64,000 nt of DNA, from NCBI GenBank assembly GCA_044222185.1, contig JBGANV010000001.1, positions 1,728,001 through 1,792,000 of the forward strand, written 5' to 3'. The notes under the pieces were generated by a model. The model was not told the origin of the DNA. It saw only the letters and a list, made by a program, of their open reading frames with translations, and did no database searches. A program made the translations under genes and the position numbers. The stretch comes from Planctomycetota bacterium. Its GTDB lineage: Bacteria; Planctomycetota; GCA-002687715; CAIWVZ01. This document shows positions 35-53,919 of this stretch, piece after piece (positions within the stretch are counted from its first letter, which is position 1; each line of letters starts with the position of its first letter).

Positions 35-1606
35 TCAGGGAATCAACACGAACGTGCGCGGCGGTGTCAGGGCGACGGCGACCCCGGGAGCGACGACGAG
101 GCCTCCGCTCGGATCGACGATCGCCGCCTGACCGTGAAGGACGAGTCCAGCGAGGTAGGGGTAGCTCGGAATGGGAAGCGCAAGCACGGAGGCCCCCGCA
201 GCATCCGTCATGGTCGAACCGACCGAGCCGTCCGGAAGCAGGAGGTCGCCCGGTGCGACGGATATGGCCACACCGCATCCAACGGCGCTGCTCCTGGAAC
301 GTGAAAGCGCGAACGTCACGGGTGCGTTCGGCGCAGCACCGGAGACCGAGAGGGCAAACGCGGCATTCCCGAGCGTCGCGCTCCCGCCAGAGAGGATAGG
401 GACTCCACTCGAACCGGCGCAGCCGTGTCCGAAGCGGGACTCGTTGCGGAAGACGGTGCAGCCCCCGTTCGTCGTCGGCAGGCCGAAGAGATCGGGATCG
501 CCGTCTGCGTCGATGTCCATCACAGAAACGGAGAGCACGTTGGCCGGTGGCGTGATCCCGAGAAATGCCTGCGACTGGAACTGTCGCGCACCGCGCCCTC
601 GGAACACCGAGAGTGCCGTCTGATCGTAGTTGGCGGAGTTGCACGCAATCCCCGCCGTGCACCAGAGCTGTCGGACGACGATGTCCTGGATCCCGTCCTG
701 ATCGAGGTCCGCGACCGCGATCGGAATGCCGGGCGAAAACTGCAGCGGAAGGTAGACGACCGGTATCTCGAGCCCGAGCGTGGGATGACCGAAGAGGATG
801 AAGATGCCGGCTCCCGTGGCGAAGAGGAGATCGGCGCGACCGTCGAGGTCGACGTCGGCGGTGATGAAGTTCGACGCGCCGTAGAACGTCCCGACGAAGC
901 GGGTGCTGATCGGCGGCACGCCGCCTCCGATGGCGAAGTAGAGCCAGAGTAGCTGGGCGGACGTCTCGAAATGTGCCACGTCCAAGTGGCCGTCGCCGTC
1001 GAAGTCCGCGAGACCCGCGACCGGGCCGGCGGGCCCGCCCCATGACGCAACGACCCAATTCGGCCACGCGTTCCTGCACACGGTGAAGCGGTAACTCACG
1101 GACCCGGTCGACGTATGGGCGGCAACCACATCGTCGAGCCCGTCGCCGTCGACATCTCCGACGAACGGAGATCCAAGAACCCCGCTTCCTCCCGTGATGA
1201 CGGACACCGCGCCGGGTGAGAATCCTCCAGCGTTGACCGTCCCGACCACGCGGTGGGTGAAGGCCAATCCATCGGCGACGACGAGATCCGGCAACGCGTC
1301 CCCGTCCAGATTGGCGAACGCGGGACTGCCGGTGACGCCATATGGGAGTGTCGAGTCCGTTCGCAGCCACGCGGCGGCGCCGGCGAGATTCGTGTCCGGA
1401 TCGAGCATGAGGCTGAGTCGGCCAGCGTCCGTGAACGCCAGGTCCGGCGTTCCATTTCCGTCGACGTCTGCCGTCACACCCGGCGCCGGACAGGCGTGGT
1501 TTGTGAAGAGCGGAGTGACGAGCCCTCGTGACTCCTGCGTGAGTAGCTGCGCGTGTACCCACGGAACGCCAGCCCAGCACACCAATGCAACGCTTGCGAG
1601 TCTCAT
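35..1606 (-). CDS. Secreted FG-GAP/VCBS repeat protein with shared C-terminal domain
   Basis: Signal peptide ending HA-Q; repeated DxDGDGxxD motifs (ADVDGNGTPD, DVDGDGLDD, DFDGDGHLD); C-terminal FGHGCAG...TDAAG...QAAIVDP domain. Confidence 0.85.
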   Translation of the reverse strand: MRLASVALVCWAGVPWVHAQLLTQESRGLVTPLFTNHACPAPGVTADVDGNGTPDLAFTDAGRLSLMLDPDTNLAGAAAWLRTDSTLPYGVTGSPAFANLDGDALPDLVVADGLAFTHRVVGTVNAGGFSPGAVSVITGGSGVLGSPFVGDVDGDGLDDVVAAHTSTGSVSYRFTVCRNAWPNWVVASWGGPAGPVAGLADFDGDGHLDVAHFETSAQLLWLYFAIGGGVPPISTRFVGTFYGASNFITADVDLDGRADLLFATGAGIFILFGHPTLGLEIPVVYLPLQFSPGIPIAVADLDQDGIQDIVVRQLWCTAGIACNSANYDQTALSVFRGRGARQFQSQAFLGITPPANVLSVSVMDIDADGDPDLFGLPTTNGGCTVFRNESRFGHGCAGSSGVPILSGGSATLGNAAFALSVSGAAPNAPVTFALSRSRSSAVGCGVAISVAPGDLLLPDGSVGSTMTDAAGASVLALPIPSYPYLAGLVLHGQAAIVDPSGGLVVAPGVAVALTPPRTFVLIP

Positions 1607-1878
1607 GCAGCGCCTCCGCGGAGAATCTACAGCGGATCGTTCGTGTTCGCATCAACCGACGCGTGCGGCGGCGCAGGCCTCACGCGCCCGCTCGGAACGG
1701 ACATCGCGATCCCGTGCGCGGCACTCGCTCCCTCGCCGGATCACGCAGGCAATTCCGATGCGAGGCGAGAACGAACCGCGTGAAGTCGGCTGGGCCATCG
1801 ACCCCCGGGTCGCTCCGTCGCGACGGACAACTTCAGTCGCAACCACGTCCGTGCGAACATCGCACCACGAGGAACCAC

Positions 1879-2574
1879 ATGAAGGTCGTCATCGGAGAGG
1901 CGATCGCACGCGCGACCCGACCGCAGAAGGTCTGGTTGCAGGCCAGCACGGCCACGATCTACGCCCACCGCCTCGACGCACCGAATGACGAGCTCACCGG
2001 GATCCTCGGAGGCGACGAGCCGGGCGCCCCCGAGACCTGGCGATTCAGCATCGGCATCCCGACGGCCTGGGAGGCCGCGCTCGACGCCGCAGTCACTCCG
2101 CACACGCGAAAAGTCGCCATGCGCTCGGCCATGGTAATGACGCCAGACCGCGGCGGCGTGTTCGACGTGCTCACGACGCTCGCCCGTCGCGGGCTGGGTG
2201 GCAACGTCGGCGGCGGTCGCCAATACGTCTCCTGGATCCACGGTGAGGACTTCGTCCGCAGCCTGTACTGGCTCGCCGAGCACGAAGAGCTCGCGGGCGC
2301 CGTCAACATCTCCTCGCCGAATCCACTCCCCTATTCCGACTTCATGCGCGAGATCCGGCGCGCGCTCGGCGTTCGCGTCGCACTGCCGGCGCCCGCCTGG
2401 ATGGTGGAAGTCGCGGCCTGGTTCATGCGCACGGAGTCCGAACTCGTCCTGAAGAGCCGTCGCGTGATCCCCACGCGGCTGTTGCAGTCGGGGTTCACGC
2501 TCCGCTACCCGAGATGGTCGGATGCGGACGCGGACCGCTGCGCGAGGCTGCGGCCGGTCCCGGCGGGAGCGTGA
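1879..2574 (+). pseudogene. TIGR01777-like NAD-dependent epimerase (DUF1731), internally deleted and lacking the Rossmann GxxGxxG motif
   Basis: RBS GAGGA then MKVVI fused directly to GEAIARA...WLQASTATIYAHR; GxQYVSWIH and ELVLKSRRVIPTRL motifs; 231 aa versus about 300 typical. Confidence 0.7.
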
Positions 2575-3332: not shown

Positions 3333-4886
3333 ATGAAGCGACGCAACCCTGCCACTCCGCTCCTGATCATCGTCGTCGCGCTCACGCTCGCGCCAGGCCT
3401 GATCCTCGCATTCACGACGCTTGGAGGTGGCCAACTCCTCGGCATCGCCACGAGCGGAACGGGTTATCAACGCGACGTCCGCGTATGGAACAACGCCGTC
3501 GACCCGACCGCGAACCCCAACGGCGCAACGGACCCTTCCCTGCCTGGAGCGAGCGGCGCAGCGCTTGCCGGGTGGCGTGCATCGCGCGCCTGGAACTCCG
3601 ACACCCCGACCGCCGGCGGCAACTTCGACTACGACTGGCAGGGCGCGGCCACGGCCTCGAATCCGAACCAGAACACCATCAGCTTCGGCGACACGGGGTG
3701 CAGCGGCTCCGTCCTCGCGTACACCGAGACGCCGGTCAACGACGGGTGGCGAATCCTCGTCTGCGAGTCCGCCTGGGTGTGGTACGCGGACAACGGAACG
3801 CCGACGGCCGGTCAGTACGACCTGCGCGGCGTTCTCACACACGAACTCGGGCATGCGCTGGGTCTCGGCCACAGCCAGACGGCCAATTGCGCCGGTTCGT
3901 CGTGCAGTTCGAACCCCTGCATGTGCGCGTTCATCTGCGGAACGGGCGCGCCGCAGCGCGTGATCACGGCCGACGATCAGGCCGGCGTGCAATCGATCTA
4001 CGGCACCATTCCCGCGAACAAGCCCCTCATCACGAGCGTGAGTGGCTCGCTCGTGACGGGAGGAACGATCACGATCATGGGGCAGAACTTCGCGCCGACG
4101 GTCTCCGTGAAGTTCTCTGCACGAACGTCCACGAACACGGGGTCGATCCCCGGCGTCGTCACCAACGTGCCGTCGACCTTGGGCGGAACTCGGCTGACCG
4201 TGGTCGTCCCCTCGGCGGCCGTCTCGGGGAACGTCGTCGTCTGGGAGCCCGCGCTCGGCGTCATGTCGAATGCATTCCCCATCGGTCTGGGTCTGACCGC
4301 ACCCGCCATCACGTCGGTGACGCCGCAATCCGTACCGGCATTCGGCGACCCCGTCGTCACGCTCACCGGGACGGCGTTCTCCCCGGCCACGCAGGTCGTG
4401 TTCGGAGGAGTGACGCTGTCCCTCCCCGGTGGGTTCACGATCGTCAACGACACGACGATCACGTTCCCCGCCCCGCCAGCGCAGGCCTTCGGGCCGGCAA
4501 CGGTCACGGTGACCAATCCGACGGGCACGAGCGCACCGGCGAACTTCGCGTACGTGGAAGTGGATCCGCCGCTCCTCATCACGCCCGGACTCACCTCATC
4601 CGCGGTGCCGTACACGGCGACTTTTGCCGGCGGCGCCAACGACACGTACTTCCTGGTCGCGGCACTGGACCCGACGACGACATCGTTCCTCGGCTTCACG
4701 GTCCTGCAGAACTACTTCGTGGTGACGTCCGGCGCACTGAACCCGCTCGGTCAGGGATCGCACACGGTCCAGATCCCACCCGGCCTGACGGGGATCACGT
4801 TCCGCATGCAGGTCGCGACGGTGAGTGACACGACCGCGAGCTTCGTCGGAGCAAGCAACATCACGCTCTCGGCAATCATCTTCTGA
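3333..4886 (+). CDS. Secreted matrixin (M10)-like zinc metallopeptidase with IPT/TIG domains and C-terminal domain
   Basis: HELGHALGLGH metzincin motif; Met-turn region (PCMC); two PxITSV...G IPT/TIG repeats; signal peptide. Confidence 0.85.
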   Translation: MKRRNPATPLLIIVVALTLAPGLILAFTTLGGGQLLGIATSGTGYQRDVRVWNNAVDPTANPNGATDPSLPGASGAALAGWRASRAWNSDTPTAGGNFDYDWQGAATASNPNQNTISFGDTGCSGSVLAYTETPVNDGWRILVCESAWVWYADNGTPTAGQYDLRGVLTHELGHALGLGHSQTANCAGSSCSSNPCMCAFICGTGAPQRVITADDQAGVQSIYGTIPANKPLITSVSGSLVTGGTITIMGQNFAPTVSVKFSARTSTNTGSIPGVVTNVPSTLGGTRLTVVVPSAAVSGNVVVWEPALGVMSNAFPIGLGLTAPAITSVTPQSVPAFGDPVVTLTGTAFSPATQVVFGGVTLSLPGGFTIVNDTTITFPAPPAQAFGPATVTVTNPTGTSAPANFAYVEVDPPLLITPGLTSSAVPYTATFAGGANDTYFLVAALDPTTTSFLGFTVLQNYFVVTSGALNPLGQGSHTVQIPPGLTGITFRMQVATVSDTTASFVGASNITLSAIIF

Positions 4887-5576: not shown

Positions 5577-7685
5577 ATGAATTCAACCACGCTCGGACGG
5601 CGGTGTGGCCCTCGGTGCAACCCACCGATCGGCGTCGTCGCGCGCTCTCTGGCGGCAGCCCTCGTCATCGCCGGGTTCTCCATCGCGCAGTCGACCCAGC
5701 AAGCCGCGGTCCTCGTGAGCGCCACCGTCTCGACGAGTCCGCCTTCCATCAGCTTCTCCTGGCCGGCGGATTCCTCGGCGTCGAGCTACGCAGTGTACCG
5801 GCGGCTGAGTGGCGCAACGGCGTGGGGAACACCGACGACGATCCCCGGCGGCGCGTCCGCAACGTCGTGGGTCGACACCAGCGTCGTCCCCGGCACGCGG
5901 TACGAGTACTGGTTCAACAAGTCGGGCTCGGTCGCGGGACGAAGCCTCGTCGCGTCTGGCATCGAAGTGCCTGCGGTGGACGCGCGTGGCAAGCTCGTCC
6001 TCATGGTGGACGCGACGAAGGTCTCGGCCCTGGGCCCACGGCTCGATCGACTGATGAACGACCTCGTCGGCGACGGGTGGACGGTGCTGCGGCACGACGT
6101 CCTTCCCACGCAATCCGTACCCAGCATCAAGGCTCTCATCGTCGCGGACTACAACGCGGATCCGGCGAACGTCCGCGCGGTGTTCTTGCTGGGCCGGATC
6201 CCGGTCCCCTATTCCGGCATCATCGCGCCCGACGGTCATCCAGATCACCAAGGTGCCTGGCCGGCCGACGTGTACTACGGCGAGATCAACGGAACCTGGA
6301 CCGACGTCTCGGTAAATACCACGACGGCATCCCGCCAGGAGAACAAGAACGTCCCCGGCGACGGCAAGTTCGACCAGAGCCAGATCCCGAACGACGTGGA
6401 CCTCATGGTCGGGCGCGTCGACCTCTCCAACATGCCGGCGTTCGGCACGACCGAGGACGTGCTGCTCCAGAACTACCTGGACAAGGACCACGACTATCGC
6501 CACGGGGTCTTCACCGCCGATCGACGCGCCGTCATCGACGACAACTTCGGATACTTCGCCGGCGAGGCCTTCGCGGCGACCGGGTGGCGCAACTTCTCCG
6601 CGCTGCTCGGAGTGTCGAACGTCGTGGCGGCGGACTATTTCACGACGCTGAACACGACCTTCGGCGGCGGTCATCTGTGGTCCTACGGCTGCGGTGGCGG
6701 CTCCTACACGAGCGCGGGCGGCATCGGCTCGACGACGGATTTCACGAGCAGCACCAACCGCAACGTGTTCACGATGTTGTTCGGCAGCTACTTCGGCGAC
6801 TGGGATTCCCAGAACGACTTCCTGCGTGCGCCGCTCTGTACTGGATGGACGCTGTCGAGTTGCTGGGCAGGGCGACCCCACTGGTCGTTCCATTTGATGG
6901 GCATGGGTGACACGCTCGGGCACTGCGCGCGGTTCAGCCAGAACGACACGGTCGCGGGCGGTTTCGGCACGCGGTCGATCCACGTGGCGTTGATGGGTGA
7001 TCCCACCCTGCGCGAGCATGTCCTCTCGCCGCCGGCGAACGTCGCGGCGCTCGCGGGAGGCGGGCAGGTCGCCGTCACGTGGGCCGCGTCGCCTGCGGTC
7101 GTTGCGGGCTACCACGTCTATCGCAGCTCATCGGCCTCGGGGCCGTTCACGCGCCTCACGACGGCGCCGGTCACGGGGCTGAGCTTCGTCGATCCGGCGC
7201 CGGTAGCGATGACCGACATCTACATGGTCCGGTCGATCGCTCTCGAGTCGGGATCGAGCGGCTCCTATTGGAACTCGAGTCAGGGTGTCACGGCGACCGC
7301 GTGTCCGGCGCCGACCGCCATCGCCCAGAGCATCGGGTCCTCGTGCGGCGTCGTGCCGCCATCGCTCCAAGGCACGCCTCCGATCATCGGCCAGGCGGTG
7401 ACCCTCTCCGTCACCAATGGAACGCCGAACGCCGCCGGCGGGATCTACGTGGGCGTACTCGGGACTCCGACGGCAGTCGGGAACGGATGCACGTTGCAGC
7501 TCGATCTCCCGACCCTCGCGCTGTTCGCGCCAATCCAGCTCACGCCCCAAGGCGCGTGGTCGCTCTCGACGTCGCTCCCGAACGACCCGACCCTCCTGTG
7601 TCGCGGCGCCGACTTCCAAGCCGTCGTTTTCGAGTCAGGCGGCGTCGCGCTGACCAACGCCCTCCACGTGGTCGTCGGCAACTGA
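5577..7685 (+). CDS. Secreted FN3 plus peptidase C25 (gingipain)-like domain protein with shared C-terminal domain
   Basis: FN3-like segments (YAVYRR...YEY; YHVYRS) flank a domain with FLLGRIPVP, ADVYYG, VGRVD, GSYFGDWD and LMGDPTL motifs; start chosen at ATG 7 nt after TAGGAT. Confidence 0.7.
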   Translation: MNSTTLGRRCGPRCNPPIGVVARSLAAALVIAGFSIAQSTQQAAVLVSATVSTSPPSISFSWPADSSASSYAVYRRLSGATAWGTPTTIPGGASATSWVDTSVVPGTRYEYWFNKSGSVAGRSLVASGIEVPAVDARGKLVLMVDATKVSALGPRLDRLMNDLVGDGWTVLRHDVLPTQSVPSIKALIVADYNADPANVRAVFLLGRIPVPYSGIIAPDGHPDHQGAWPADVYYGEINGTWTDVSVNTTTASRQENKNVPGDGKFDQSQIPNDVDLMVGRVDLSNMPAFGTTEDVLLQNYLDKDHDYRHGVFTADRRAVIDDNFGYFAGEAFAATGWRNFSALLGVSNVVAADYFTTLNTTFGGGHLWSYGCGGGSYTSAGGIGSTTDFTSSTNRNVFTMLFGSYFGDWDSQNDFLRAPLCTGWTLSSCWAGRPHWSFHLMGMGDTLGHCARFSQNDTVAGGFGTRSIHVALMGDPTLREHVLSPPANVAALAGGGQVAVTWAASPAVVAGYHVYRSSSASGPFTRLTTAPVTGLSFVDPAPVAMTDIYMVRSIALESGSSGSYWNSSQGVTATACPAPTAIAQSIGSSCGVVPPSLQGTPPIIGQAVTLSVTNGTPNAAGGIYVGVLGTPTAVGNGCTLQLDLPTLALFAPIQLTPQGAWSLSTSLPNDPTLLCRGADFQAVVFESGGVALTNALHVVVGN

Positions 7686-9839: not shown

Positions 9840-11474
9840 TCACAGGTAGAAGAAGATCATGCGCCCCGCCGTCAACGCGAGGTTCGTGCCGCCGGCGTTG
9901 AACGCGCCCGCGGGGTCGAGCACGGCTGCCTGCGCGTAGTAGACCGAGGCGATCGGGATCGGACCCGCGAGAGGAATCGTCGCAGTCCAGTTGCCTGACG
10001 CATCCGTCACTCCGAGGCCGAGGCCGCCTGAGGGCAGCACGAGATTCCCAGGCGCGAGACTGAGTTGGATGCCGCAGCCAGCGATAGGCGTGGCCTGAGT
10101 GGAGAGGGCAAGAACCACGGGGGTGGCCGGCGGCGCGACGACGGTGAATGCGAACGTGACGTTGCCGAGGAATGCCGACCCGACGCGAAGCTGAGGTACG
10201 ACGGTGCCCGCGCACGCGGTTCCGAACTCCGAGAAGTTCTCGTAGATCGCGAGCCCGGTCGTGTCGTCGTTGCCGATCAGGTCGTCGTCGCCGTCGAGGT
10301 CGATGTCCACGAACCGCGTCGTCGGCGCCGGCGGGTGGGCCGACAGGTTGATGTCGGTCACGTTCGACGCGTACGCGTACGGGTACGTCGCCATGCGCGC
10401 GTCGAAGCCAGGGGCGGGCGCCGTGCAACCGAAGCCCGAGCAGTACGGATTCCGCCAGCACGCGAAGTCGCGGCTCGACGACTTGTCGAGGCGCGGAGTT
10501 TCGATCCGCAATGACTGCGGCGTCCCAGCCGGGATTGGGAGAACGATCTGCCCGGTCTGAAGCAGCGCGCCGGTCGTCGTCCCGTAGTTGGCGAGGACGA
10601 AGGCAAAGTTGAGTTGACCGGCCGAGCGATAGGTCAGGAAGTCGTGCCGCCCGTCACCGTCCATGTCCGCGACGAACGTCACGCCGAAGGTCGGCACGAT
10701 CGAAGTGATCGGCTGCGACGTGGAATGGATGGCGCCGAAACCCGCCGCCGTGTTCACCGTCATCACGTCGACCGAGTGCAAGAGGTTCGCCGTCAACGGA
10801 GGCAGCCAAGCCAGATCCCACACTCCATCGCCATCGAAGTCCCCCGCCCGCACGGTCGGAGGTCGGCACGCGATGGTCGTCGCCGCTACGAACGGAAAGG
10901 CCGGCCATGCGTTGGCGCAGAGTTGACAGGTCGCGCTCGTCGGATTGGAAGCCGAGTCTTCCACGAGAAGCAGGTCGGCGTACGGGTCGGAATCGAAGGG
11001 TGCCGCGATGACGACGCGCGTGGAACCCGGCGTCTGAGCCGGCAAGGCCACGGTCGTCGGAGGCTGGAACGTCCCGTTGCCGTTGCCCAACAGCACGAAG
11101 ACGGCCGTCGCTCCCAGGAAGTCCACGCCGGTGACGACGAGGTCGAGCGTCGCGTTCGCATCGATGCGGCCGGAAGCCACCGACGACACGTAGAGCCCGC
11201 CCGGCAGACCGCCGGACGGGACGATCGTCGGAAGCGCCGAAAGCTGCGCGGCGCCAGCGCTACCTGCGTCGAGTAGGATCTGCGCTCCCCCCACCGTCGT
11301 GCCGAAGACGATGTCGACCAACCCGTTGTTGTTGAAGTCTCCCGTCGTTTCGATCGACGAGGCAATGCTGCCGGGGGCACCGTGGGCCTTGAACCGGAGG
11401 ACCTGACTCGGCGCGTCCATTCCGATGGCCGCGCAAACGAGGAGGGTCGTCAACGTCCAGTGGAATTTGGTCAT
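9840..11474 (-). CDS. Secreted FG-GAP repeat protein with shared C-terminal domain
   Basis: GDFNNNGLVD, LGNGNGTF, GDFDGDG motifs; signal peptide ending PS-Q; tandem paralog of 11520-13172. Confidence 0.85.
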   Translation of the reverse strand: MTKFHWTLTTLLVCAAIGMDAPSQVLRFKAHGAPGSIASSIETTGDFNNNGLVDIVFGTTVGGAQILLDAGSAGAAQLSALPTIVPSGGLPGGLYVSSVASGRIDANATLDLVVTGVDFLGATAVFVLLGNGNGTFQPPTTVALPAQTPGSTRVVIAAPFDSDPYADLLLVEDSASNPTSATCQLCANAWPAFPFVAATTIACRPPTVRAGDFDGDGVWDLAWLPPLTANLLHSVDVMTVNTAAGFGAIHSTSQPITSIVPTFGVTFVADMDGDGRHDFLTYRSAGQLNFAFVLANYGTTTGALLQTGQIVLPIPAGTPQSLRIETPRLDKSSSRDFACWRNPYCSGFGCTAPAPGFDARMATYPYAYASNVTDINLSAHPPAPTTRFVDIDLDGDDDLIGNDDTTGLAIYENFSEFGTACAGTVVPQLRVGSAFLGNVTFAFTVVAPPATPVVLALSTQATPIAGCGIQLSLAPGNLVLPSGGLGLGVTDASGNWTATIPLAGPIPIASVYYAQAAVLDPAGAFNAGGTNLALTAGRMIFFYL

Positions 11475-11519: not shown

Positions 11520-13172
11520 TCAGAACAACAAGATCGTGCGTGCATTCGTCAGCGCGAACGAGGCGCCGCCGAGGTGGAATGGGCCGGTGGGATCCAGCAC
11601 CGCCGCTTGCGCGAAATACGCACCGGCCAAAGCGGGAACGCTTGGCAACGGAATGGACAGAGTGAAGAGACCACCGGGTCCTGTCGCACCGAATCCGAGC
11701 TGCCCGTGCGGCAGGATGAGGTTGGTCGACCCGAGATCGATCTGCGGCCCGCACGCGGCCGACGGCGCGAGCTGCGTTGACAGCCCGAGAACGACCGGAG
11801 CGTTCGGCGCTCCCGAGACCTGGATCACGAAACTCGCGCTCCCGAGTGCTCCAGGAGTGGACACGAGTCCCGCGGCCGTGGATCCGGAGCATCCTCCACC
11901 GAGTTCGGCGGTGTTGTCCAACCGGGTCATGAAGCCTGCCGTCGTGGTCCCAAGAAGGTCGGCATCGCCGTCCAGGTCGAGGTCGCGAAGCAGGTGTGCG
12001 ACGGAGACTCCCGGGGACGGCTGGGTGAGGACCGTACCCGTCGCCGCATAGGTTCGGCCCGCCGTGGACATCCAACTGAGGTGATAAGGCGGCGACGGCG
12101 AGCAGCCGGGTGCGCCACAAATGGGGACCACCCAATAGAGCAGGTCCAGATCGCCCGCCCGATCGAGGTCGGCGATTTCGACCGCAGGTGGTGTCGACGG
12201 GTAGCCGTTCGCGTAGTTCGCGACGGACGCAGACGACGGCGACAGGAAGGTCCCGGTGCCCGTTCCGTAGCAGATGAAGACGCTGAACTGGGCGAACGAT
12301 GAGGGCCCGACCTGGAAGGCCACGAGATCCGAGAACCCGTCGCCGTCCATGTCGGCAGTCGACAGCTGGATGTTCGTACCGCCTCCGGGCGTCGTGACCG
12401 TCTGGACGGTGCCGAAGCCGGTGCTCGTGCTCAGGTGTCTCGCGCGGGCCACGACGGTCCCGGCCGTAGTGCCGGCGGTGACCCAGGCCAGTTCGTCGAT
12501 GCCGTCGCCGTCGAAGTCGCCCGTGGTGAACGAGAACGCAGGGATTGCCAGTGGCGCACCCGCGATCCAAACCGGCCATTGATTGTGGAAGATCTGGCAC
12601 GTCGGCGCGCCGTTGGGTGGGTACGAGATGAGCAGGATGTCGGAGAGCCCGTCGGCATCCATGCGCGCCACGCGGGCGCGTCGGTATCCGCCAACGAACG
12701 CCATCGGAGGAAGCGGCACGGGAACGGCCGGCTGAAAGGTCCCATCCCCGTTGCCGAGAAGTATGAACGTGTCACCGAGCGCTGTCGCGACGGATGTGAC
12801 GATGATCACGTCCAGGTTGATGTCTCCGTCGAAGTGGCCGACGCCGATCGCGCCACTGGTGAGCCCATTGGGAAGCGTCGTCGGCCCGATCAGAGGCAGA
12901 AGCGTGGCGAGACTCGACCCTGTGGCAACGCCGGGATCGAGGAGCAGGCCGTATCCGGACGGGTCGAGAAACACCACGTCGGGAAGCCCGTTGTTGTTGA
13001 AGTCGCCCACGGCTTCTGCGGAGAACACGAAGCCCAACGCAGGTCCCTGCGCACCCTGGCGGAAGATCTGCGCGGGGAGCACGCACGTCTGAAGCATGGC
13101 CGCCGCCATCACGATGACCGATGTCACACACGTCCTGATGCACATGGCGTTGATCCTGAAGCGGAGCGCCAC
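11520..13172 (-). CDS. Secreted FG-GAP repeat protein with shared C-terminal domain
   Basis: GDFNNNGLPD, LGNGDGTF, ADMDGDG motifs; signal peptide ending PA-Q; start may be at 13145. Confidence 0.85.
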   Translation of the reverse strand: MALRFRINAMCIRTCVTSVIVMAAAMLQTCVLPAQIFRQGAQGPALGFVFSAEAVGDFNNNGLPDVVFLDPSGYGLLLDPGVATGSSLATLLPLIGPTTLPNGLTSGAIGVGHFDGDINLDVIIVTSVATALGDTFILLGNGDGTFQPAVPVPLPPMAFVGGYRRARVARMDADGLSDILLISYPPNGAPTCQIFHNQWPVWIAGAPLAIPAFSFTTGDFDGDGIDELAWVTAGTTAGTVVARARHLSTSTGFGTVQTVTTPGGGTNIQLSTADMDGDGFSDLVAFQVGPSSFAQFSVFICYGTGTGTFLSPSSASVANYANGYPSTPPAVEIADLDRAGDLDLLYWVVPICGAPGCSPSPPYHLSWMSTAGRTYAATGTVLTQPSPGVSVAHLLRDLDLDGDADLLGTTTAGFMTRLDNTAELGGGCSGSTAAGLVSTPGALGSASFVIQVSGAPNAPVVLGLSTQLAPSAACGPQIDLGSTNLILPHGQLGFGATGPGGLFTLSIPLPSVPALAGAYFAQAAVLDPTGPFHLGGASFALTNARTILLF

Positions 13173-13704: not shown

Positions 13705-15594
13705 ATGCGTCTCGTCGATCGTCAGCGTTCCCGTCGTGGCTCGGCACAGTCCGCACTCCTCGTCGCCATGGTTGCGCTCGCCCTCGCGACCACGGGATCC
13801 GTTCGCGCCCAATCGTGCGTGCCGACGCCGCCTGGAACGTCGTTCTGGGCGCCGCTCGACGAAAACGCCGGCGCATCACTCCACAACATCGCCAAGCCGA
13901 CCGGCGCGGGCTTCGACGTGGGCAATCCCCAGATCTACTCGGGCTACGTATCGCCCGGACAGGCGCGCCGATACAACGGCTCGTCGCAGTACAGCGAATT
14001 CCCCGACCACCCGTGGCTGAACCCCTGGGAGAACGGCGGCGCCGGGTTCTCCCTGTCATGCTGGGTCAACTGCCTGACGATCGACAACGTGAGCGGCGTC
14101 CGCGTCATCCTCGACAAGCGGACGTTCGTCGGTGGCGCGATTCGAGGCTTCACGTTGTTCCTCGATGGCGGATACCTCGGGTGCCAGATCGCCGATGGCA
14201 CGTACTCGAACTACGTCGCCTACATCCCCTCGCACCAGATCGTCCCGAGCAACCAGTGGCGCTTCATCGCCATGAGCGTGAATCGTCCGCTCGGCCAGGG
14301 CTACCTCCGCGTCGACAACGCCGTGTGGAACTTCAACCCCTCCGCGCACCAGGGCTCGCTGGTGACGAACGCGCCCCTGCGCATCGGCGCGTCGAGCGAT
14401 GCGATCCCCGGCTCACATTTCTCCGGCATCGTCGACGAGCTGATGCTCTCGCAGAAATGGCTGCCGTCCTCGACGTTCGACCCCGTCTACACGGCGACAC
14501 CGTTTGGCGTCGCGGGAATGTGCAAGACGCAGGTCGCGATCTTCAGCGCACCGAGCTTCCCGACGCTCGCGCAATCCTGCGCGTGGGTCCAAGGACGCAT
14601 CTGGAACAACAACGTCTGGCCCATGACGTACGCGTACTCGTTCCAATCGCTCGCCGCGAACTCGGTGCCTGGTTGCACGATCAACGGGCCCACGAGCATC
14701 CAGCCGGCCTCGGGGAACATCACGGTGCTCCCGTTCTCGTTCGCCGACGTCGGGGCGCTGATCAACCGGCCGCTGGGGCTCGGTTACGCGTGCGTCCGGC
14801 TGCAGGCTTCGAGCGGTGGCAACTCGGTCTCGCACACGGCGAGCTTCTGGGTGAACAACGGAACGCTCACCGCAGGCCCTCCATGCGTCTACATTCCATC
14901 GCCGATCGTCAACGCGGGGGTGAATCAGATCGGGACCGCAAGCCTCACGCTCGGCAACGACGGCCCGTCGCCGGTCGCCGCCACGTACCGGCTCGCCGTC
15001 GTCGCTCCCGACGGCACGGAGGACTTCGAGCACGTGAGCCTGAACGGCCTTCCACCTGGCACGGCGCACCTCGAATCCGTGATGCTCTCCCCGGGCACGT
15101 CGCAGGCGATCCCGGTGTCGGCCACCTTCGTCAAGACGGACCCGATGAGGGATTACGCGATCACGCTCCTGGCGGACGCGGGCGGCACGCCCGGCGGGCA
15201 ATTCCAAACGATCGCGTGGGTCGGGCTTCGCGACGCGCGTGCCGACGGCGTCTGTTCCGAGGCGTTGACGCCCGAGGCGGGATCACTGCACTTCGGCGTC
15301 TCTGGAGCCCCCGCTGGCGCGACGGTCTACACGTTCCTGACGTTCGCGCCCGGTGCGTTCCCCTTCGGTTGGTTCTTCGGCCTGGACATCGGCTTCCCGG
15401 ATCTCGTCAATCAATACAACCTCGCCGTTCTCGGCCTGCCGCCGTTCGCCGTCCAGGCTGGCGCGAACGGAACGGCGGATTGGTCGCTGGCGGGACTCCC
15501 CCCGGGAATCCCCGTGTTCGGCGTCAGCGTCACGACAGGCGCAGGTTCGGTCCCGCTTCTGCATTCGAACCCGTTCCAGTTCACGACGCAGTGA
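13705..15594 (+). CDS. Secreted LamG/concanavalin-like domain protein with C-terminal domain
   Basis: RBS GGAG; signal peptide ending RA-Q; WAPLDE, FSLSCWV, QWRFIAM, FSGIVDEL LamG motifs. Confidence 0.8.
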   Translation: MRLVDRQRSRRGSAQSALLVAMVALALATTGSVRAQSCVPTPPGTSFWAPLDENAGASLHNIAKPTGAGFDVGNPQIYSGYVSPGQARRYNGSSQYSEFPDHPWLNPWENGGAGFSLSCWVNCLTIDNVSGVRVILDKRTFVGGAIRGFTLFLDGGYLGCQIADGTYSNYVAYIPSHQIVPSNQWRFIAMSVNRPLGQGYLRVDNAVWNFNPSAHQGSLVTNAPLRIGASSDAIPGSHFSGIVDELMLSQKWLPSSTFDPVYTATPFGVAGMCKTQVAIFSAPSFPTLAQSCAWVQGRIWNNNVWPMTYAYSFQSLAANSVPGCTINGPTSIQPASGNITVLPFSFADVGALINRPLGLGYACVRLQASSGGNSVSHTASFWVNNGTLTAGPPCVYIPSPIVNAGVNQIGTASLTLGNDGPSPVAATYRLAVVAPDGTEDFEHVSLNGLPPGTAHLESVMLSPGTSQAIPVSATFVKTDPMRDYAITLLADAGGTPGGQFQTIAWVGLRDARADGVCSEALTPEAGSLHFGVSGAPAGATVYTFLTFAPGAFPFGWFFGLDIGFPDLVNQYNLAVLGLPPFAVQAGANGTADWSLAGLPPGIPVFGVSVTTGAGSVPLLHSNPFQFTTQ

Positions 15595-19799: not shown

Positions 19800-21425
19800 A
19801 TGCTCCCTGCCCTGAAGGCCCCCTCGTTGCTGGCCACTCCCGGTTCGTTCTCCCTCTTCGCCATCGGGCAGCTCCCTTTCCCGCTTTCGAACCCGACGAC
19901 GGTGGGCCCTCCGGGCCCGTGCGCCACCCGGTCATCCGTCGGCGACCTGAACGGCGATGGAAGAGACGACTTCGTCGGCGGTGGAGCAGGGTTGTCCGTC
20001 ATGTGCAGCCTCGCGGGCGGGGGCTACGGACCTCCAGTGCCATTCGGTCCAACGATCACCGCAGGTGCGTCGGTCAACGTGCACGCGGTCGCGGATATGA
20101 ACGTCGACGGGATCGCGGACGTCCTCATGACCGTCGAGGCGCCGCTCACCGGCCTCTTCAGTCCGCCTTTGACACCGCCGGTAACGATGGTCCTGCCAGG
20201 CCTCGGCAATTGCCTGTTCGGCGCTGCGCTCCCAGTGCCTGATCCCACCGGGGCGACGAGTTGGAGACGTGCTTGTTTCCTGAACCCATACATCCCTGGA
20301 CTCGTCGCACCCGGGATGCCACCAGCCATCGTCATGGTCTCTTGGCAAGGGTGCGCGAATGCCCAGCCACATTTCGTTCACACACTCACCTATGCAGCGG
20401 GCGCATACTCGGCGGTGGCATCCACACCGGCTCCGATCCCGCCCGCGTTCGCGACGTGGGGCCCGCTCGCGACGTTCTCGATTCAGCGAGCGGGAGACGT
20501 CGATGGCGACGGCCTTCTCGACCTCGTTGGCAACAGCCAGTGCTTCGCCTATCCACAGTTGGTGTTGGCCCGCGGCTCGGCGATCCCGCCCTACTTCGTC
20601 AACCCGACGTCGGTCGCGATGTCCTCGGGATTCGCGAACCTCGCGGTCGAGGTGAGCGACGTGAACAACGACGGCCTCGCAGACGTCGTCTACGTCGACG
20701 CTTACGGGACCGTCGTGGCGTTCTTCGGCCACCCAACGTCACCGTTGACCGCGTTCCAGGTCTCTTCGGTGGGCGCTCCGATCCAATCGTTCTTCGTGCA
20801 AGACCTCGACGGAGACGGCGCCGCGGACTTCTTCTTCCGGAGTTACGGCGCGACCTCCGTCGGATTCAGCCGCGGAAACGGCCTCGGCGCGTTTGGCCCG
20901 GCGATGACGGTGCCGGCCTCCGCGTCACATACAAGCAGTTGCGCGTGGCCGGCAGATGAGAACGGGGACGGTTCGATGGACTTCGTCGCGGCGCTCCTTC
21001 CTGGCATCACGGGTGCCAGGACGTTCGCCATGCACAATCTGTCGCGGTTCGGACCGGGCGTTCCCGGCAGCAATGCCGTCGTCCCGCAAGCCGTGTCCGG
21101 GATCGCGAACGCGGGAGCCGTCTCGTACTTCGTTGGCATCGTCGGCGCCGCGGGCAATGCACCCGCCATACTTGGAGTTTCACTCGGTGCGCTGACGACA
21201 CCCGACACTGCCGGCAACATGCTCGACCTCAACCTGCTCGTTCTCCCGAGCGGGAATTTCGGCTCGTTCCAGACGGATGCGTCGGGAAACGCCACATGGA
21301 CTCTGACCCTCCCGCCGCTCCCTGCACTCGTTGGGCAGACGATCTTCCTCGAGTGGTTCGTGCACGACACCGGGGCGACAGCAGGCTATGGCCTCTCGCC
21401 CGCTCGCAAGGTGGTGTTCTGGTAG
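19800..21425 (+). CDS. Secreted FG-GAP repeat protein with shared C-terminal domain
   Basis: GDLNGDGRDD, GDVDGDGLLD, SDVNNDGLAD motifs; predicted cleavage IG-Q; start uncertain. Confidence 0.8.
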   Translation: MLPALKAPSLLATPGSFSLFAIGQLPFPLSNPTTVGPPGPCATRSSVGDLNGDGRDDFVGGGAGLSVMCSLAGGGYGPPVPFGPTITAGASVNVHAVADMNVDGIADVLMTVEAPLTGLFSPPLTPPVTMVLPGLGNCLFGAALPVPDPTGATSWRRACFLNPYIPGLVAPGMPPAIVMVSWQGCANAQPHFVHTLTYAAGAYSAVASTPAPIPPAFATWGPLATFSIQRAGDVDGDGLLDLVGNSQCFAYPQLVLARGSAIPPYFVNPTSVAMSSGFANLAVEVSDVNNDGLADVVYVDAYGTVVAFFGHPTSPLTAFQVSSVGAPIQSFFVQDLDGDGAADFFFRSYGATSVGFSRGNGLGAFGPAMTVPASASHTSSCAWPADENGDGSMDFVAALLPGITGARTFAMHNLSRFGPGVPGSNAVVPQAVSGIANAGAVSYFVGIVGAAGNAPAILGVSLGALTTPDTAGNMLDLNLLVLPSGNFGSFQTDASGNATWTLTLPPLPALVGQTIFLEWFVHDTGATAGYGLSPARKVVFW

Positions 21426-22014: not shown

Positions 22015-23217
22015 ATGTCACCTGCGTCATTGGTTTCGGTTCTGCTCGCCGCCACGCTGTTCGCGAACGGCCAGGACGTCATCCACTACAAGTTCGACGA
22101 AGGGGGTGGTAATCGCGTCGTCAACTTCGCGACCGGTTCCCCGGCGGTTCCACGAGAAGGAACAGTCGTGACATCCGGCGCCATGGCCGCGAGTCAGGCG
22201 TGGACCACCGGGCGCTTTGGCGGCGGGTTCCTTCAATCGGCGAACACGTCGCTCGGAGGCGCGGAGGTGGACACGGGCTGGAATGATGAGGTCCCCGCCG
22301 ACGTCACCGTCGCGGCGTTCGTGCGCTTTCCCAATGGACCGACATCCGCGGTGATCGCGAATCGATGGGCGAGCACGAATGCCTACACCGGCATCTCGAT
22401 ACAGCTGACCGGGACCGGGCCCTTGGCGGGCCACACGCAGCTGAGATGGAGGTCGGGTTCGAGCACCCAGGTCTTCAATTCGTCGGGCACGTTCTTCCCG
22501 CCGAACACGACGAGCTGGGTCCACATCGCGGTCGTCGTCAGTCAAACCGCCCAGACGCCTTACGTCCGCTGGTACCTGAACGGGATCGCCGAATCGCCTC
22601 AGCCGACTGCGGGTCTGGCGCCAATCCCGCCTTCCTACTACCTGACGTCGACCAACCCCTACACCTTCGGGACGTTTGCCGTCGGCAACGACGGAGCCAG
22701 CGGGAGCACGGTCGTACCCGTCGTCCTCGACGAGTTTCGCGTCTCGCTGCGCGTGGTCCCAGATGCGGAGATCCTTCAGTGGGCGACCTCCCCTTCTGCC
22801 GCGCACGCGGCATTCGGCGCACCGTGCCATCCATTCGGTCTTCGAGTACTTCTCGACGGCACGGCCGGCGGACTCCCGACGATCGGAAACGCGAACTACC
22901 AACTCACCGTGTACGGGCTCCCTCAGTCCCAGGTGACGCTCGGGATCGGCACCTCCGTGCAAACGTTCGCGGGCATGGCCCTCCCGTTCGATCTCGGAGT
23001 CCTCGGCCCGCCGCTCGCTGGGTGTCTCCTGCGCATGAGCCCGGATGTCCTGCTCAATGGCTCGATCCCGGCCACAGGCAGCATCGCCTTCCCAACGATC
23101 ATCCCCGCGGCACCCGCCCTCATGGGCACGACCGCTTATGCGCAGGCGCTTCTCTTCAACGGCGTCGTCAACTCGTCGAGCGTGACGAACGCATGGGCGT
23201 TGACGATCGGACCGTGA
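22015..23217 (+). CDS. Secreted LamG-like domain protein with shared C-terminal domain
   Basis: Signal peptide ending NG-Q; HYKFDEG, WVHIAVV, WYLNG, LDEFRV motifs. Confidence 0.8.
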   Translation: MSPASLVSVLLAATLFANGQDVIHYKFDEGGGNRVVNFATGSPAVPREGTVVTSGAMAASQAWTTGRFGGGFLQSANTSLGGAEVDTGWNDEVPADVTVAAFVRFPNGPTSAVIANRWASTNAYTGISIQLTGTGPLAGHTQLRWRSGSSTQVFNSSGTFFPPNTTSWVHIAVVVSQTAQTPYVRWYLNGIAESPQPTAGLAPIPPSYYLTSTNPYTFGTFAVGNDGASGSTVVPVVLDEFRVSLRVVPDAEILQWATSPSAAHAAFGAPCHPFGLRVLLDGTAGGLPTIGNANYQLTVYGLPQSQVTLGIGTSVQTFAGMALPFDLGVLGPPLAGCLLRMSPDVLLNGSIPATGSIAFPTIIPAAPALMGTTAYAQALLFNGVVNSSSVTNAWALTIGP

Positions 23218-41676: not shown

Positions 41677-43294
<1,618 letters not shown>

Positions 43295-49461: not shown

Positions 49462-50217
49462 TCAGAGGATGAGGACGGGGAGCGCCTGGGCGATGCGGCG
49501 CACCACACACGGCGCGCTGAGGTCGAGAACGACGTAGTCGATGATGAGCGCCGTCCCGACGATCTGTGGCAGGTTCGGTGTGACGACCGTCGGGGACTGG
49601 GTCGCGCCGACACCGTTCAGGTTGCCGCTGAAGTTCAGGAAGATCGGGTTCGGGCTCGTCGACAGGGTGAAGACCGCATCGAGCTGCAGCGGGATCAAGC
49701 CCCCGCACGTGACGATCCCTCCGGCAAGCGGAGGGAATGACGCGGCCGCAACGTAAGGCCGGTTGGCGTCCGCGGGCGATTCGAAATCGAGCTGCCGCGT
49801 CGTGCCGATGCGGATCGGTCCCAAGGGCGCGATCGTCGCCCCGACGCCGTTGGTGATCGTCACGCTGACGGTGGTCAGACCACCGCCCGGCACGAGAACG
49901 TCCACCAGGTAGATCCCCGCCGGGACCTGTTGGTTCGCGTCATTCACCTGGTTCCAGTACGTCGTGAACACCGTCCCCGGGTTCACCGGGACGACGATGG
50001 CGATGCAGAACGGCGTGTAAACCGGCGTTCCCCCCTGCGTCCGCACGGTGAACGGGCAGACCCCCGTGAAGATCGTCGCCGCCGTATCGTTGGCGATGGT
50101 CACGGCGATGGGGTTTCCGACGGGCGCCTGTTGAGGAGCGACGGTCGCGGACACCTGTGCCGTCGCGGCGGCTGCCAACAGCGCGAAAAGGATCGCTGCG
50201 TTTCGGATGCGAGACAT
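49462..50217 (-). CDS. Secreted protein with a FlgD/BsuPI-like Ig domain plus C-terminal domain
   Basis: GGAGG RBS; signal peptide ending TA-Q; WNQVNDANQQVPAGIY Ig motif. Confidence 0.7.
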   Translation of the reverse strand: MSRIRNAAILFALLAAAATAQVSATVAPQQAPVGNPIAVTIANDTAATIFTGVCPFTVRTQGGTPVYTPFCIAIVVPVNPGTVFTTYWNQVNDANQQVPAGIYLVDVLVPGGGLTTVSVTITNGVGATIAPLGPIRIGTTRQLDFESPADANRPYVAAASFPPLAGGIVTCGGLIPLQLDAVFTLSTSPNPIFLNFSGNLNGVGATQSPTVVTPNLPQIVGTALIIDYVVLDLSAPCVVRRIAQALPVLIL

Positions 50218-50291: not shown

Positions 50292-50795
50292 TCATTTCCT
50301 GACCCGAGTGAAACGGAACTCCTGTTTGACGTGCTTCCCGCCTTCGTCGCCCTCGAGGGTCGCGACGAGGCCACCGTCAGGCGTCAGTGCGTAACGGATG
50401 ACCTTCGGGTGATCGTGCGTCGGGTTCTCGAATTGTGCGGAGCGGGCGTCCGAGGCCGTCTGCCTGAATTCGGTGACGGGGCCGCCGTTCGGGCTCGCGA
50501 CGTAGACGATGCCGTCCTTCCGCTGCTCGAGGCGCAGGAACTCGAACGACATCGTGCGGTCCTTCAGGACGGTTCGACCGAGCCCCAGCATCGTGCGACC
50601 CTTGGCCGAGATCCAGTGCTCTTCCAGTTCGGCACCGCGAAAGGTCCCTTCCCAGTCACCGACCATCCAGGAGAGATCCGCCAGTCCCGATGGCCGGGTG
50701 GCCGCGTCCTGAGGCAGAACCCGCATCCAAGGGATCACCGCAACGGCGCACGCGGCGACGGCGAGCCCGCCGCGGGACATCAAGCGTCGATTCAT
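50292..50795 (-). CDS. DUF6265-like exported protein
   Basis: LSWMVGDW, EEHW, FEFLRL, FENPTHDHPKVIRY. Confidence 0.75.
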   Translation of the reverse strand: MNRRLMSRGGLAVAACAVAVIPWMRVLPQDAATRPSGLADLSWMVGDWEGTFRGAELEEHWISAKGRTMLGLGRTVLKDRTMSFEFLRLEQRKDGIVYVASPNGGPVTEFRQTASDARSAQFENPTHDHPKVIRYALTPDGGLVATLEGDEGGKHVKQEFRFTRVRK

Positions 50796-51845: not shown

Positions 51846-52029
51846 GTGCGGCAGCACTGGCATGCCGGGCTCGCGCCGCCGTCGCCTCGACGAGCGCCGG
51901 CCGAGGCGATGAAAGCCACCACCTTCGCCGGGTTTTGGTGTGCCGCGCAGACGCAGCCTATACTGCCATCGCCGGGCCCCTCTGCCGTCGCGAGAACCTC
52001 ACTCGTCGAGCCCCATTCACATCATCACC

Positions 52030-53919
52030 ATGCACATCAAATCCCGAATCGCGATCGCGTCGCTGGCCTCGTTCCTCGTCGCCGCGACCGTTCGCGCACA
52101 GTCACTTCCAACCGGGTTCAGCGATGAGCTCATCGCTGGAGGATTCACCCTTCCCATCGGGCTCGGGTTCCTCCCGGACGGGAGGATGATCGTCTGCGAA
52201 CAACAGTCCCACGTCATCAAGGTCGTCGCCAACGGCGTGACTGCCACGATGGGCACCGTCCCCGGGGTCGACAACGGAGTGATCGAGAACGAGCGCGGAC
52301 TGCAGCACATCGCCGTGGACCCGCAATGGCCGGCGCGTCCGTACATCTACGTGTTCTTCACGCACGACTCCCCGCACAACTGCTGGCTGTCGATGTACAC
52401 CGTGACCGGAACCCTCACGAGTCCGACGAGCACCAACCTGACGCTCGGCACGAAGTACGACATCATCACCGACATCCCCGACAACTCCGAGAACCACAAC
52501 GGCTCGTCGCTCCGCTTCGGGCCGGATGGATTCCTCTACGTCAGCGTCGGTGAGGACTATCAGTTCTGCCCAGCGCAGGACGTGTCGAGCGGCCTGGGTT
52601 GCATCATGCGTCTGGACGTGTCGTCGCTCCCCGGCGCAGGCTCGGGCCCGCCGCCGAAGACCCAGATCGCCGCCGCCGGCAACCCCATCGCAACGGGAAC
52701 CGGGTTCGAGCGACTCGTTTGGGCCTACGGCCTCCGCAACCCGTGGCGCTTCCACATCGATTCCCTGTCGGGTCAGCTCTTCATCGGCGACGTCGGTGAA
52801 TCGACCTGGGAAGAGCTCGATTGGTGCTTCGCGGGCGGTCAGAACTTCGGATGGCCGTGGAAGGAAGCCAACTCGAATCACGGAAGCTGCGCGGGGAATC
52901 AACCTCCGCTCGTCTCCCCGGTCGTGGCGCACAACCACAACACGAGCTGGTTCTCCATCGAGTCAATGGTGACGTACCGCAACCGCCCCAACGGCATCTA
53001 CAACTTCGGGGCGAGCTACGACGGCGACTGGTTCTACACGGATTACATCTCGGGCGCCGTTCGCCGCCTCCAATTCAACGGCCTTTCCTGGAGCGCGGCC
53101 CCGTCCGTGCCCGGCCAGCCCGATGCCTCGAACTGGGCGACGGGACTGTCGTTCGTGTCGGACTCGACCATCGGGCCCGACGGCGCGATCTACTACTTGA
53201 AGCATCTCGCGGGTCAGATCCGTCGCATCAAGTCCACCGCCAACGCGCCCACGTTCACCGTCCAGAGCGGCGCCGGCCAGCCGGTCAACGCGGGACAGTC
53301 GGCGCTCTCACCGCTGACCGTCCGGGTTGCGACGCCGGGCGGGGTCCCCTTCGCGAACACGACCGTGACGTTCGCCGTGACGACGGGTGGCGGATCGGTG
53401 TCGCCCACGACGGTCGTCACGGATTCGAACGGCATCGCGTCGACGACGTTCACGGCCTCCGCGACGACGGTCACGAACCCGATCGTGACGGCGTCCACGC
53501 CGGGTGCCACGTCGGTGACGATCCCCCTCGTCTGGCGCGGATTGAGCGTGGCCTACATCCCAGCCCTCTCGCAGATCACGATGACGGTCCGCCACAGTCA
53601 GACGAACTCGCCAGTGACGCTGGCAGCCGACATCCCGCCGCCGACGCCCTACCTCGTCACTCCCTACGGAAGCGTGTGGACCTCGATCCTCTCGGTGCCG
53701 TCCACCGCGACCGTTCTCGACGGGCTCGGGCTCGTCGGACCACCCATGCCTGGGTTCGTCACCGGTCCGGTGAACCCCACCTACACGATCACGTTCCAGA
53801 ATCTCCCAGCCCTCGGAGGCGTTCCCGTGCTCCTGCAGGCTTACGCGCTCGACACGGCGATACTCGCGCAACCGCAGGCGATCATGATCAGCCAGCCCGT
53901 CACCGTCACGCTCAACTGA
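52030..53919 (+). CDS. Secreted PQQ-dependent sugar dehydrogenase (GSDH) with Big_1 domain and C-terminal domain
   Basis: ERGLQHIAVDP, HNGSSLRFGPDG, YGLRNPWR, GDVGE, NFGWP; TDSNGIA Ig motif; signal peptide ending RA-Q. Confidence 0.88.
   Translation: MHIKSRIAIASLASFLVAATVRAQSLPTGFSDELIAGGFTLPIGLGFLPDGRMIVCEQQSHVIKVVANGVTATMGTVPGVDNGVIENERGLQHIAVDPQWPARPYIYVFFTHDSPHNCWLSMYTVTGTLTSPTSTNLTLGTKYDIITDIPDNSENHNGSSLRFGPDGFLYVSVGEDYQFCPAQDVSSGLGCIMRLDVSSLPGAGSGPPPKTQIAAAGNPIATGTGFERLVWAYGLRNPWRFHIDSLSGQLFIGDVGESTWEELDWCFAGGQNFGWPWKEANSNHGSCAGNQPPLVSPVVAHNHNTSWFSIESMVTYRNRPNGIYNFGASYDGDWFYTDYISGAVRRLQFNGLSWSAAPSVPGQPDASNWATGLSFVSDSTIGPDGAIYYLKHLAGQIRRIKSTANAPTFTVQSGAGQPVNAGQSALSPLTVRVATPGGVPFANTTVTFAVTTGGGSVSPTTVVTDSNGIASTTFTASATTVTNPIVTASTPGATSVTIPLVWRGLSVAYIPALSQITMTVRHSQTNSPVTLAADIPPPTPYLVTPYGSVWTSILSVPSTATVLDGLGLVGPPMPGFVTGPVNPTYTITFQNLPALGGVPVLLQAYALDTAILAQPQAIMISQPVTVTLN

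Follow-up and report, generated by a model that had tools for sequence, protein, structure and literature searches.

A strictly C-terminal domain on exported proteins of Planctomycetota as a candidate sorting or retention tag

Eleven exported proteins and their C-terminal ends

The 64-kb stretch of DNA analyzed here, referred to as the window, carries eleven genes for proteins that appear to be exported and whose C-terminal ends are the subject of this work. A first-pass annotation had proposed that these ends form one shared C-terminal domain (CTD), attached to otherwise unrelated N-terminal modules and acting as a secretion or surface-sorting signal. By sequence, the host is a member of Planctomycetota; the ribosomal protein S2 (RpsB) encoded in the window is closest to genomes of this phylum (66% and 64% for the best two of 80 rpsB loci). 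All eleven open reading frames (ORFs) were present at the places where they had been annotated, with likely gene starts that match the coordinates given there. In the following, proteins are often referred to by the name of the longest ORF, with 5427 standing for the likely gene 5568-7685, 13603 for 13705-15594, 19569 for 19800-21425, 21838 for 22015-23217, and 51940 for 52030-53919; likewise, the ORFs 11520-13172, 23339-26011, and 49462-50295 correspond to the likely genes 11520-13145, 23339-25900, and 49462-50217, respectively.

With regard to the N-terminal modules, Pfam searches recovered FG-GAP in 35-1606, 9840-11474, 11520-13172, and 19569-21425, Peptidase_M10 plus TIG in the matrixin-like protein 3333-4886, the Rax2/DUF5122 propeller in 23339-26011, and GSDH plus Big_1 in 51940-53919, all in agreement with the first-pass annotation. 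Laminin G domains had been assigned to two proteins; Laminin_G_3 was identified in 21838-23217 (E of 1.9e-9), while protein 13603 gave no Pfam family at E ≤ 0.1 and no match in a search of PDB sequences. Two further labels, C25-like for protein 5427 and Ig for protein 49462, were not borne out, as neither protein matched a Pfam family at E ≤ 0.1, and the search of PDB sequences returned only an Fn3-like match (E of 0.005) for the former and no match for the latter. All eleven N termini look like signal peptides by eye, as had been claimed, with that of 19569 being weak (hydrophobicity of 1.47 against a cutoff of 1.9).

Six of the eleven tails share a domain that we call type 1. When the last 150 amino acids (aa) of the eleven proteins were compared with one another by blastp, the tail of 11520 matched those of 9840 (E of 1.8e-38), 35 (4e-29), 19569 (2.8e-12), 5427 (4.6e-8), and 21838 (7e-6), and a hidden Markov model (HMM) built from these six sequences recovered the same six alone among 573 six-frame ORFs of the window. 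Four of the carriers are FG-GAP proteins, one is a Laminin_G_3 protein, and one has no Pfam family. In the FG-GAP proteins, the domain is encoded at 38..433 in 35-1606 (minus strand; 132 aa from the FGHGCAG motif to the last residue; 120 bits against the family HMM), 9843..10226 in 9840-11474 (minus strand; 128 aa; 112.8 bits), 11523..11903 in 11520-13145 (minus strand; 127 aa; 115.5 bits), which is the copy used for modeling, and 21048..21422 in 19800-21425 (plus strand; 125 aa; 98.4 bits), which is without both cysteines of the family. The Laminin_G_3 protein 22015-23217 carries the domain at 22813..23214 (plus strand; 134 aa; 67.7 bits; hhalign probability of 99%), and protein 5568-7685, the N-terminal part of which has no Pfam family, carries it at 7332..7682 (plus strand; 117 aa; hhalign probability of approximately 98%). 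The family HMM behind these scores is a broader one drawn from 151 database sequences, with 5427 excluded; it scored the latter tail at 36.3 bits (E of 1.7e-10). As controls, 250 background windows from the same proteins reached a maximum of 12.4 bits, and 440 shuffled sequences a maximum of 8.9 bits. The six core tails align and yield a confident fold, and chance compositional similarity among them is ruled out by the blastp E values together with the shuffle and background controls.

The highest score of a nonmember in the window, 12.4 bits, was obtained with an exported-looking Big_1/CarboxypepD_reg protein (7751-9664, minus strand), in which the matched region is internal (residues ~250 to 450). 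The T-D-x-x-G-x motif of the CTD resembles the hairpin motif of CarboxypepD_reg-type domains; kinship with that family received no support from Pfam matches of 35 CTD sequences at E ≤ 1.

The remaining five tails, those of 3333, 13603, 23339, 49462, and 51940, have no type-1 HMM match at the C terminus; they scored 4.3 to 12.6 bits against the family HMM, inside the control range, and hhalign comparisons of single variant tails with the family profile gave probabilities of ≤17%. A phmmer search of the variant tails against the 80 rpsB loci gave nothing below an E of 0.015. We also counted weak phmmer matches that lie at the matching distance from the C terminus, i.e., in register, and compared these counts with those of 15 shuffles per tail. 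The in-register matches exceeded the shuffles for 49462 (39 versus ≤6), 3333 (17 versus ≤4), and 51940 (12 versus ≤5), and did not for 13603 (7 versus ≤7) and 23339 (1 versus ≤3). The tail of the matrixin/TIG protein 3333-4886 (4560..4883, plus strand; 108 aa, ending in F; 12.6 bits, about the top of the background) and that of the small exported protein 49462-50217 (49465..49815, minus strand; 117 aa; 4.3 bits, within the background) are probable remote relatives of type 1, and the tail of the GSDH/Big_1 protein 52030-53919 (53536..53916, plus strand; 127 aa; 4.3 bits) is a possible one.

Elsewhere, in another Planctomycetota genome, an ORF of 1177 codons that adjoins rpsB (locus L011, 12996-16526, minus strand) combines a GSDH-like N terminus, 25% identical to the 51940 protein over 440 aa, with a type-1-like CTD at its C terminus (33.6 bits), an indication that proteins of the GSDH cargo class bear the type-1 tag in other genomes.

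The tails of 13705-15594 and 23339-25900 had been placed together in a variant subtype. A profile of the two picked up another three proteins, P0183 (no Pfam family), P0184 (FG-GAP), and P0185 (Rax2 propeller), all of which share with the 23339 tail the motifs SGPYLGLCASDP...PPFHF...FGPY and Q as the last residue. The tail of the Rax2/DUF5122 propeller protein (23342..23701, minus strand; ~120 aa, ending in ...VVQ) therefore has a family of its own, type 2, with no detectable relation to type 1 (hhalign probability of 0.3%). Membership of the other tail (15244..15591, plus strand; 116 aa, ending in ...TTQ; 7.9 bits against the type-1 HMM) did not follow: it reached 7.1 bits with a type-2 HMM from which it had been left out, for which the background maximum is 3.3 bits and the shuffle maximum 8.4 bits, and it matched the 23339 tail by blastp with an E of 0.11 only. 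AlphaFold2 gave no usable model of the type-2 tail from a five-row alignment (predicted local distance difference test [pLDDT] of 37.3), and the ESM Atlas neighbors of this tail score below 0.9 and serve as a lead only. Type 2 may represent another tag, comparable to that proposed for type 1. Altogether, the claim of eleven proteins with one domain is overstated: six tails are firm members, three are probable remote relatives, one belongs to a separate family, and one, that of 13603, could be assigned to neither type.

The type-1 domain across its family

A search of 1.84 billion proteins with the six-sequence profile gave 2180 matching representatives at E ≤ 1e-3, of which 136 reached E ≤ 1e-10; the member details given below rest on the best 150 of the 2180 matches, and 179 members were inspected in total. 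The domain end is the last residue of the protein in 140 of 151 domain matches and lies ≤5 residues from it in all 151, and in 28 further matches it lies 1 to 7 residues from the C terminus. In none of the 179 members is the domain internal. With 4 exceptions, the 149 best-listed matches have a single matched stretch per protein; this count, like all others, excludes P0006, a database protein of 3500 aa that matches profile positions 52 to 90 only, 24 times, probably by repeat-motif similarity and not by membership. The domain, ~125 to 135 aa long, opens at an [FL]-G-x-G-C-x-G motif, has conserved polar positions (N13, T66/D67, Q92 in 97%, and D97 in 85%), and usually ends in R-x-[ILV]-x-[ILV]-W. 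Its last residue is aromatic in 109 of the 178 members that end ≤5 residues from the C terminus (W in 78, F in 22, and Y in 9).

Named organisms among the wider relatives are Planctomycetota or Planctomycetes in four cases and "bacterium" in one, and the ESM Atlas neighbors of type 1 are Planctomycetota clusters without a Pfam 38.1 family. The 80 rpsB loci (1.31 Mb) contain only one CTD-like ORF. A single-sequence word-index search with the 11520 CTD matched only this sequence itself, and in a scan of species-representative genomes with a two-sequence CTD alignment, none of the 192 matched stretches was a relative.

No Pfam or NCBIfam family was found on any of the eleven tails at E ≤ 0.1, and nothing relevant was found with 35 CTD sequences at E ≤ 1, where Pfam returned only residual upstream FG-GAP repeats and chance matches; models of carbohydrate-binding modules (CBMs), the pre-peptidase C-terminal domain (PPC), dockerins, and Ig-like and CarboxypepD_reg domains matched neither the tails nor the 35 sequences. 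The type-1 profile has no sequence relatives in the PDB at E ≤ 1, and a full-text literature search, with supplements outside its scope, found no paper on this domain or on any planctomycete C-terminal sorting domain. We take type 1 to be a genuine modular domain of exported proteins in Planctomycetota, extracytoplasmic in location and not described before.

The cargo of the domain was examined in two sets. Among 104 close relatives (the best 150 minus 5 window proteins, P0006, 33 proteins of <200 aa, and 7 others), Pfam assigned FG-GAP to 86, LVIVD to 1, Kelch to 1, and no family to 16. A profile of 35 sequences, searched among longer proteins, yielded 27 proteins from other genomes, comprising PKD (4), Kelch (3), beta-lactamase-type (3), PF00082 (3), PF15902 (2), Laminin_G_3 (1), trypsin-like (1), FG-GAP (1), PF13229 (1), haloperoxidase (1), and PF04151 (1) proteins and 6 without a family; we take PF00082, PF15902, PF13229, and PF04151 to be the subtilase, sortilin/BNR, beta-helix, and PPC families, respectively. 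The claim of diverse cargo thus holds, with at least 11 different Pfam-defined modules carrying type 1; the domain is modular, but a single FG-GAP family makes up most of its closest relatives.

This dominance of FG-GAP proteins of similar length would fit a structural spacer or stalk without a recognition role, like the Ig-type thigh domain behind the propeller of integrins, that originated in FG-GAP proteins and was occasionally copied elsewhere. That the CTDs track cargo orthology, and that the domain directly follows the propeller with no obvious low-complexity linker, would fit such a spacer as well. Nevertheless, we consider this explanation quite improbable: the domain is also borne by at least 11 other cargo types defined by Pfam, nothing lies beyond it to be spaced, and its strict terminal position and conserved terminal aromatic residue would be left unexplained. 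In addition, thigh and calf domains are not recognizable in bacterial integrin-type propeller proteins, according to an excerpt of PMC3192720.

The domain of 11520 was modeled by AlphaFold2 with a 35-row alignment as an all-beta structure of high confidence (pLDDT of 92.3; predicted template modeling [TM] score of 0.85), with approximately 10 strands of 3 to 10 residues in 135 aa and a well-ordered last strand. When this model was compared with the PDB by Foldseek, nothing was found at E ≤ 1e-3; the best match was a lytic polysaccharide monooxygenase (LPMO; E of 1.3e-3; TM score of 0.42), and the other listed matches had TM scores of 0.31 to 0.45. Type 1 might be a CBM- or adhesin-like binding module that lends various secreted enzymes and propellers affinity for something external, a substrate or a partner, without contributing to their export or placement. 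The modeled fold is a beta-sandwich, and the nearest folds, all of them weak, are LPMO/CBM33-type and glycoside hydrolase accessory sandwiches (E of 1.3e-3 and weaker; TM scores of 0.32 to 0.45); hydrolases, proteases, and propellers, which are among the cargo, frequently bear binding modules, and the conserved polar positions listed above are also in line with binding. On the other hand, TM scores below 0.5 (0.42 to 0.45 at best) suggest that the similarity to these sandwiches is generic, no CBM or other Pfam model matches, and binding modules are commonly N-terminal, internal, or in tandem, whereas type 1 is terminal in 179 of 179 members and nearly always present in a single copy. We consider a binding module a possible but rather unlikely explanation.

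Carriers across the family also look exported. In a home-made hydropathy test, 99 of 113 complete-looking members have a signal-peptide-like N terminus, and as a control, 2 of 15 other window proteins reached the cutoff, one of them also passing the stricter form of the test. Two cysteines of the domain, one in the opening G-x-G-C-x-G motif and one in mid-domain, are both present in 96 members, with the upstream one alone in 42, the middle one alone in 0, and neither in 27 (Fisher p of 1.6e-12), and this covariation makes a disulfide bond probable. A third explanation, a C-terminal propeptide or intramolecular chaperone that aids folding or keeps an enzyme inactive and is removed after export, draws on the strictly C-terminal position on exported proteases (PF00082, trypsin-like, and matrixin-type) and other enzymes; PPC presumably acts in this manner. 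We regard it as very unlikely, even less probable than a spacer, since most carriers are nonenzymatic propellers, one carrier (P0174) already bears PF04151, and the domain itself has no Pfam PPC match.

A glutamine residue commonly follows the signal peptide: [AGS]-Q occurs after the signal-peptide-like segment in 93 of the 99 family members with a hydrophobic N terminus, compared to 18% of random windows, and by eye in 10 of the 11 window proteins (all except 3333). It is also found in two exported proteins without a CTD, 2747-3328 and 58566-60182, both on the plus strand. This pattern looks like the "Q-rule," which an excerpt of PMC5837995 describes as specific to Bacteroidetes; a term search of that source gave no mention of Planctomycetes.

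Other genes of the window

In the middle of the 26-kb cluster of CTD-protein genes lie a gene for a Ser/Thr kinase fused to an FGE-sulfatase domain (15673-18366, plus strand) and one for an extracytoplasmic function (ECF)-type sigma factor (18411-19031, minus strand), which may regulate the cluster. The 49462-50295 ORF overlaps by its end, by approximately 150 bases (49462-49613), the longest ORF of a ThrE-family gene on the same strand (48219-49613); the Pfam ThrE domain begins at residue 71 only, so the start of the ThrE gene is probably further downstream.

The G+C content is ~66 to 68% across the window except for one stretch at 58%. This island (28967-40152) contains an MmeI-type restriction-modification gene, a gene for a primase-like protein with a CHC2 zinc finger, and one for a tyrosine integrase; its end is marked by a tRNA-Lys gene (40080-40152, minus strand), and it is probably an integrated mobile element. 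Chromosomal housekeeping genes follow at 41086-45763, where Pfam-type annotation of the window ORFs identified frr, pyrH, tsf, rpsB, and lpxB, the last of which indicates an outer membrane with lipid A. The longest ORF of ribosomal protein S2 (43403-44548, minus strand) is 381 aa long, with the Pfam S2 domain at residues 60 to 274; this leaves a C-terminal extension of ~100 aa, into which the best two Planctomycetota matches reach (to query residues 361 to 365). At 54662-62676 (plus strand), genes for a radical-SAM/SPASM protein and a B12-binding radical-SAM protein precede three ORFs without a Pfam family; a signal peptide and hydrophobic segments are present in at least one of the three. The genes may form a cluster for peptide modification or a membrane-associated one.

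A putative post-Sec tag and its likeness to known sorting systems

The interpretation that we favor, with a probability of roughly 0.5, is that type 1 acts after Sec export, as a tag for sorting or retention that a partner in the cell envelope reads. It builds on the domain being folded, single, strictly terminal, present on exported and otherwise unrelated passengers, restricted to one lineage, and conserved at its C terminus. According to this model, the precursor would be exported by Sec and cleaved by signal peptidase I ahead of the glutamine, and the CTD would then fold and oxidize in the periplasm. A lineage-specific envelope partner would recognize the folded CTD together with its C-terminal strand (R-x-[ILV]-x-[ILV]-W), which is free and in most cases aromatic, and either pass the passenger across the outer membrane or retain it on the cell surface. 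The sorting or anchoring role proposed in the first-pass annotation is in this sense partly supported, by anatomy and by analogy; whatever goes beyond "exported, modular, and terminal," namely that a partner recognizes the domain and that the domain takes part in translocation or tethering, we infer.

Several observations weigh against a sorting or retention tag. One FG-GAP family of ~540 aa makes up 86 of the 104 closest relatives, and most copies of the CTD may simply have been inherited with it. The CTDs track cargo orthology and not the genome, with the nearest neighbor coming from another genome for five of the six window CTDs, so that there is no sign of coevolution with one receptor; same-genome homogenization was looked for among these six and was not found. 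The last strand is an integral, confidently modeled part of the fold, and the conserved terminal aromatic residue may thus be purely structural. The nearest folds, although weak, are generic beta-sandwiches that include polysaccharide-active ones, and dockerins, like many binding modules, are likewise typically C-terminal. Lastly, as the first-pass annotation had stated, no machinery gene was recognizable among the ORFs of the 64-kb window.

A broader proposal is that Planctomycetota have a post-Sec pathway of their own to cross or decorate the outer membrane, in which a folded CTD of at least two types serves as the flag, as type A and type B CTDs do in type IX secretion, and which is coupled to a Bacteroidetes-like "Q-rule"; it is a speculative extension that we consider rather unlikely. 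If it is true, the type-1 family would provide a cargo list for finding the machinery by co-occurrence. Protein transport across or onto the outer membrane of planctomycetes is poorly understood, and a strictly terminal domain offers a concrete handle on it, with the family HMM able to list putative cargo. Even as a docking or binding module, type 1 would be a large uncharacterized domain family that is worth a database entry.

Among the known systems, a type I secretion signal is ruled out because the carriers have signal peptides. Signals of the PEP-CTERM and LPXTG type consist of a short motif with a transmembrane helix and then a basic tail behind it. Like type 1, they are found at the C terminus of proteins that have signal peptides and varied passengers, whereas the type-1 tails, at ~130 aa, are folded and close with a beta-strand. 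The earlier remark that the tails lack a transmembrane segment plus basic tail was confirmed, as neither a transmembrane segment nor a basic cluster was found in them; with no NCBIfam sorting-signal match in addition, a PEP-CTERM or LPXTG reading is ruled out.

A hydrophobic terminal strand ending in an aromatic residue at the C terminus (109 of 178) is reminiscent of the beta-signal of outer membrane beta-barrels and autotransporters. In the type-1 model, short strands appear to form a compact sandwich, probably with a disulfide bond, in place of a membrane barrel, which would have at least 8 long amphipathic strands closed by the aromatic residue; the strands are 3 to 10 residues long, the fold matches are soluble sandwiches, and the cysteine pair is conserved. 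Matches to PagP were weak (E of 0.014 to 0.07, in 1 of 35 members) and far below the threshold.

Dockerins, calcium-binding duplicated helical segments of ~70 aa, place cellulosomal enzymes on the cell surface via a scaffold. Like type 1, they are single and usually C-terminal modules common to many different secreted enzymes; unlike them, type 1 is predicted to be all-beta, has no Pfam dockerin match, and has no known cohesin-like partner.

The closest parallel is with the CTD of the type IX secretion system (T9SS). Both are folded beta-sandwiches, by the model in the case of type 1, that form the last domain of Sec-exported, signal-peptide-bearing proteins with many unrelated passengers; in both cases each protein has only one, and the copies of one genome diverge strongly from each other. 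The carriers of type 1 also show Gln after the signal peptide, as do exported proteins of Bacteroidetes according to the excerpt of PMC5837995. The T9SS CTD is described, in an excerpt of PMC11285876, as a compact Ig-like 3+4 beta-sandwich of seven strands, and set against that description, type 1 would differ, with ~125 to 135 aa and approximately 10 predicted strands. Further differences are the host, Planctomycetota, and the terminal aromatic residue and probable disulfide bond of type 1. No T9SS CTD is present among the listed PDB matches of the 11520 model, no T9SS machinery gene was recognized among the ORFs of the window, and membership was rejected, since the curated NCBIfam/TIGRFAM and Pfam CTD models matched neither the eleven proteins (E ≤ 0.1) nor the 35 CTD sequences (E ≤ 1). 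By these sequence models, type 1 is not a member of the T9SS CTD family; it resembles that domain in logic.

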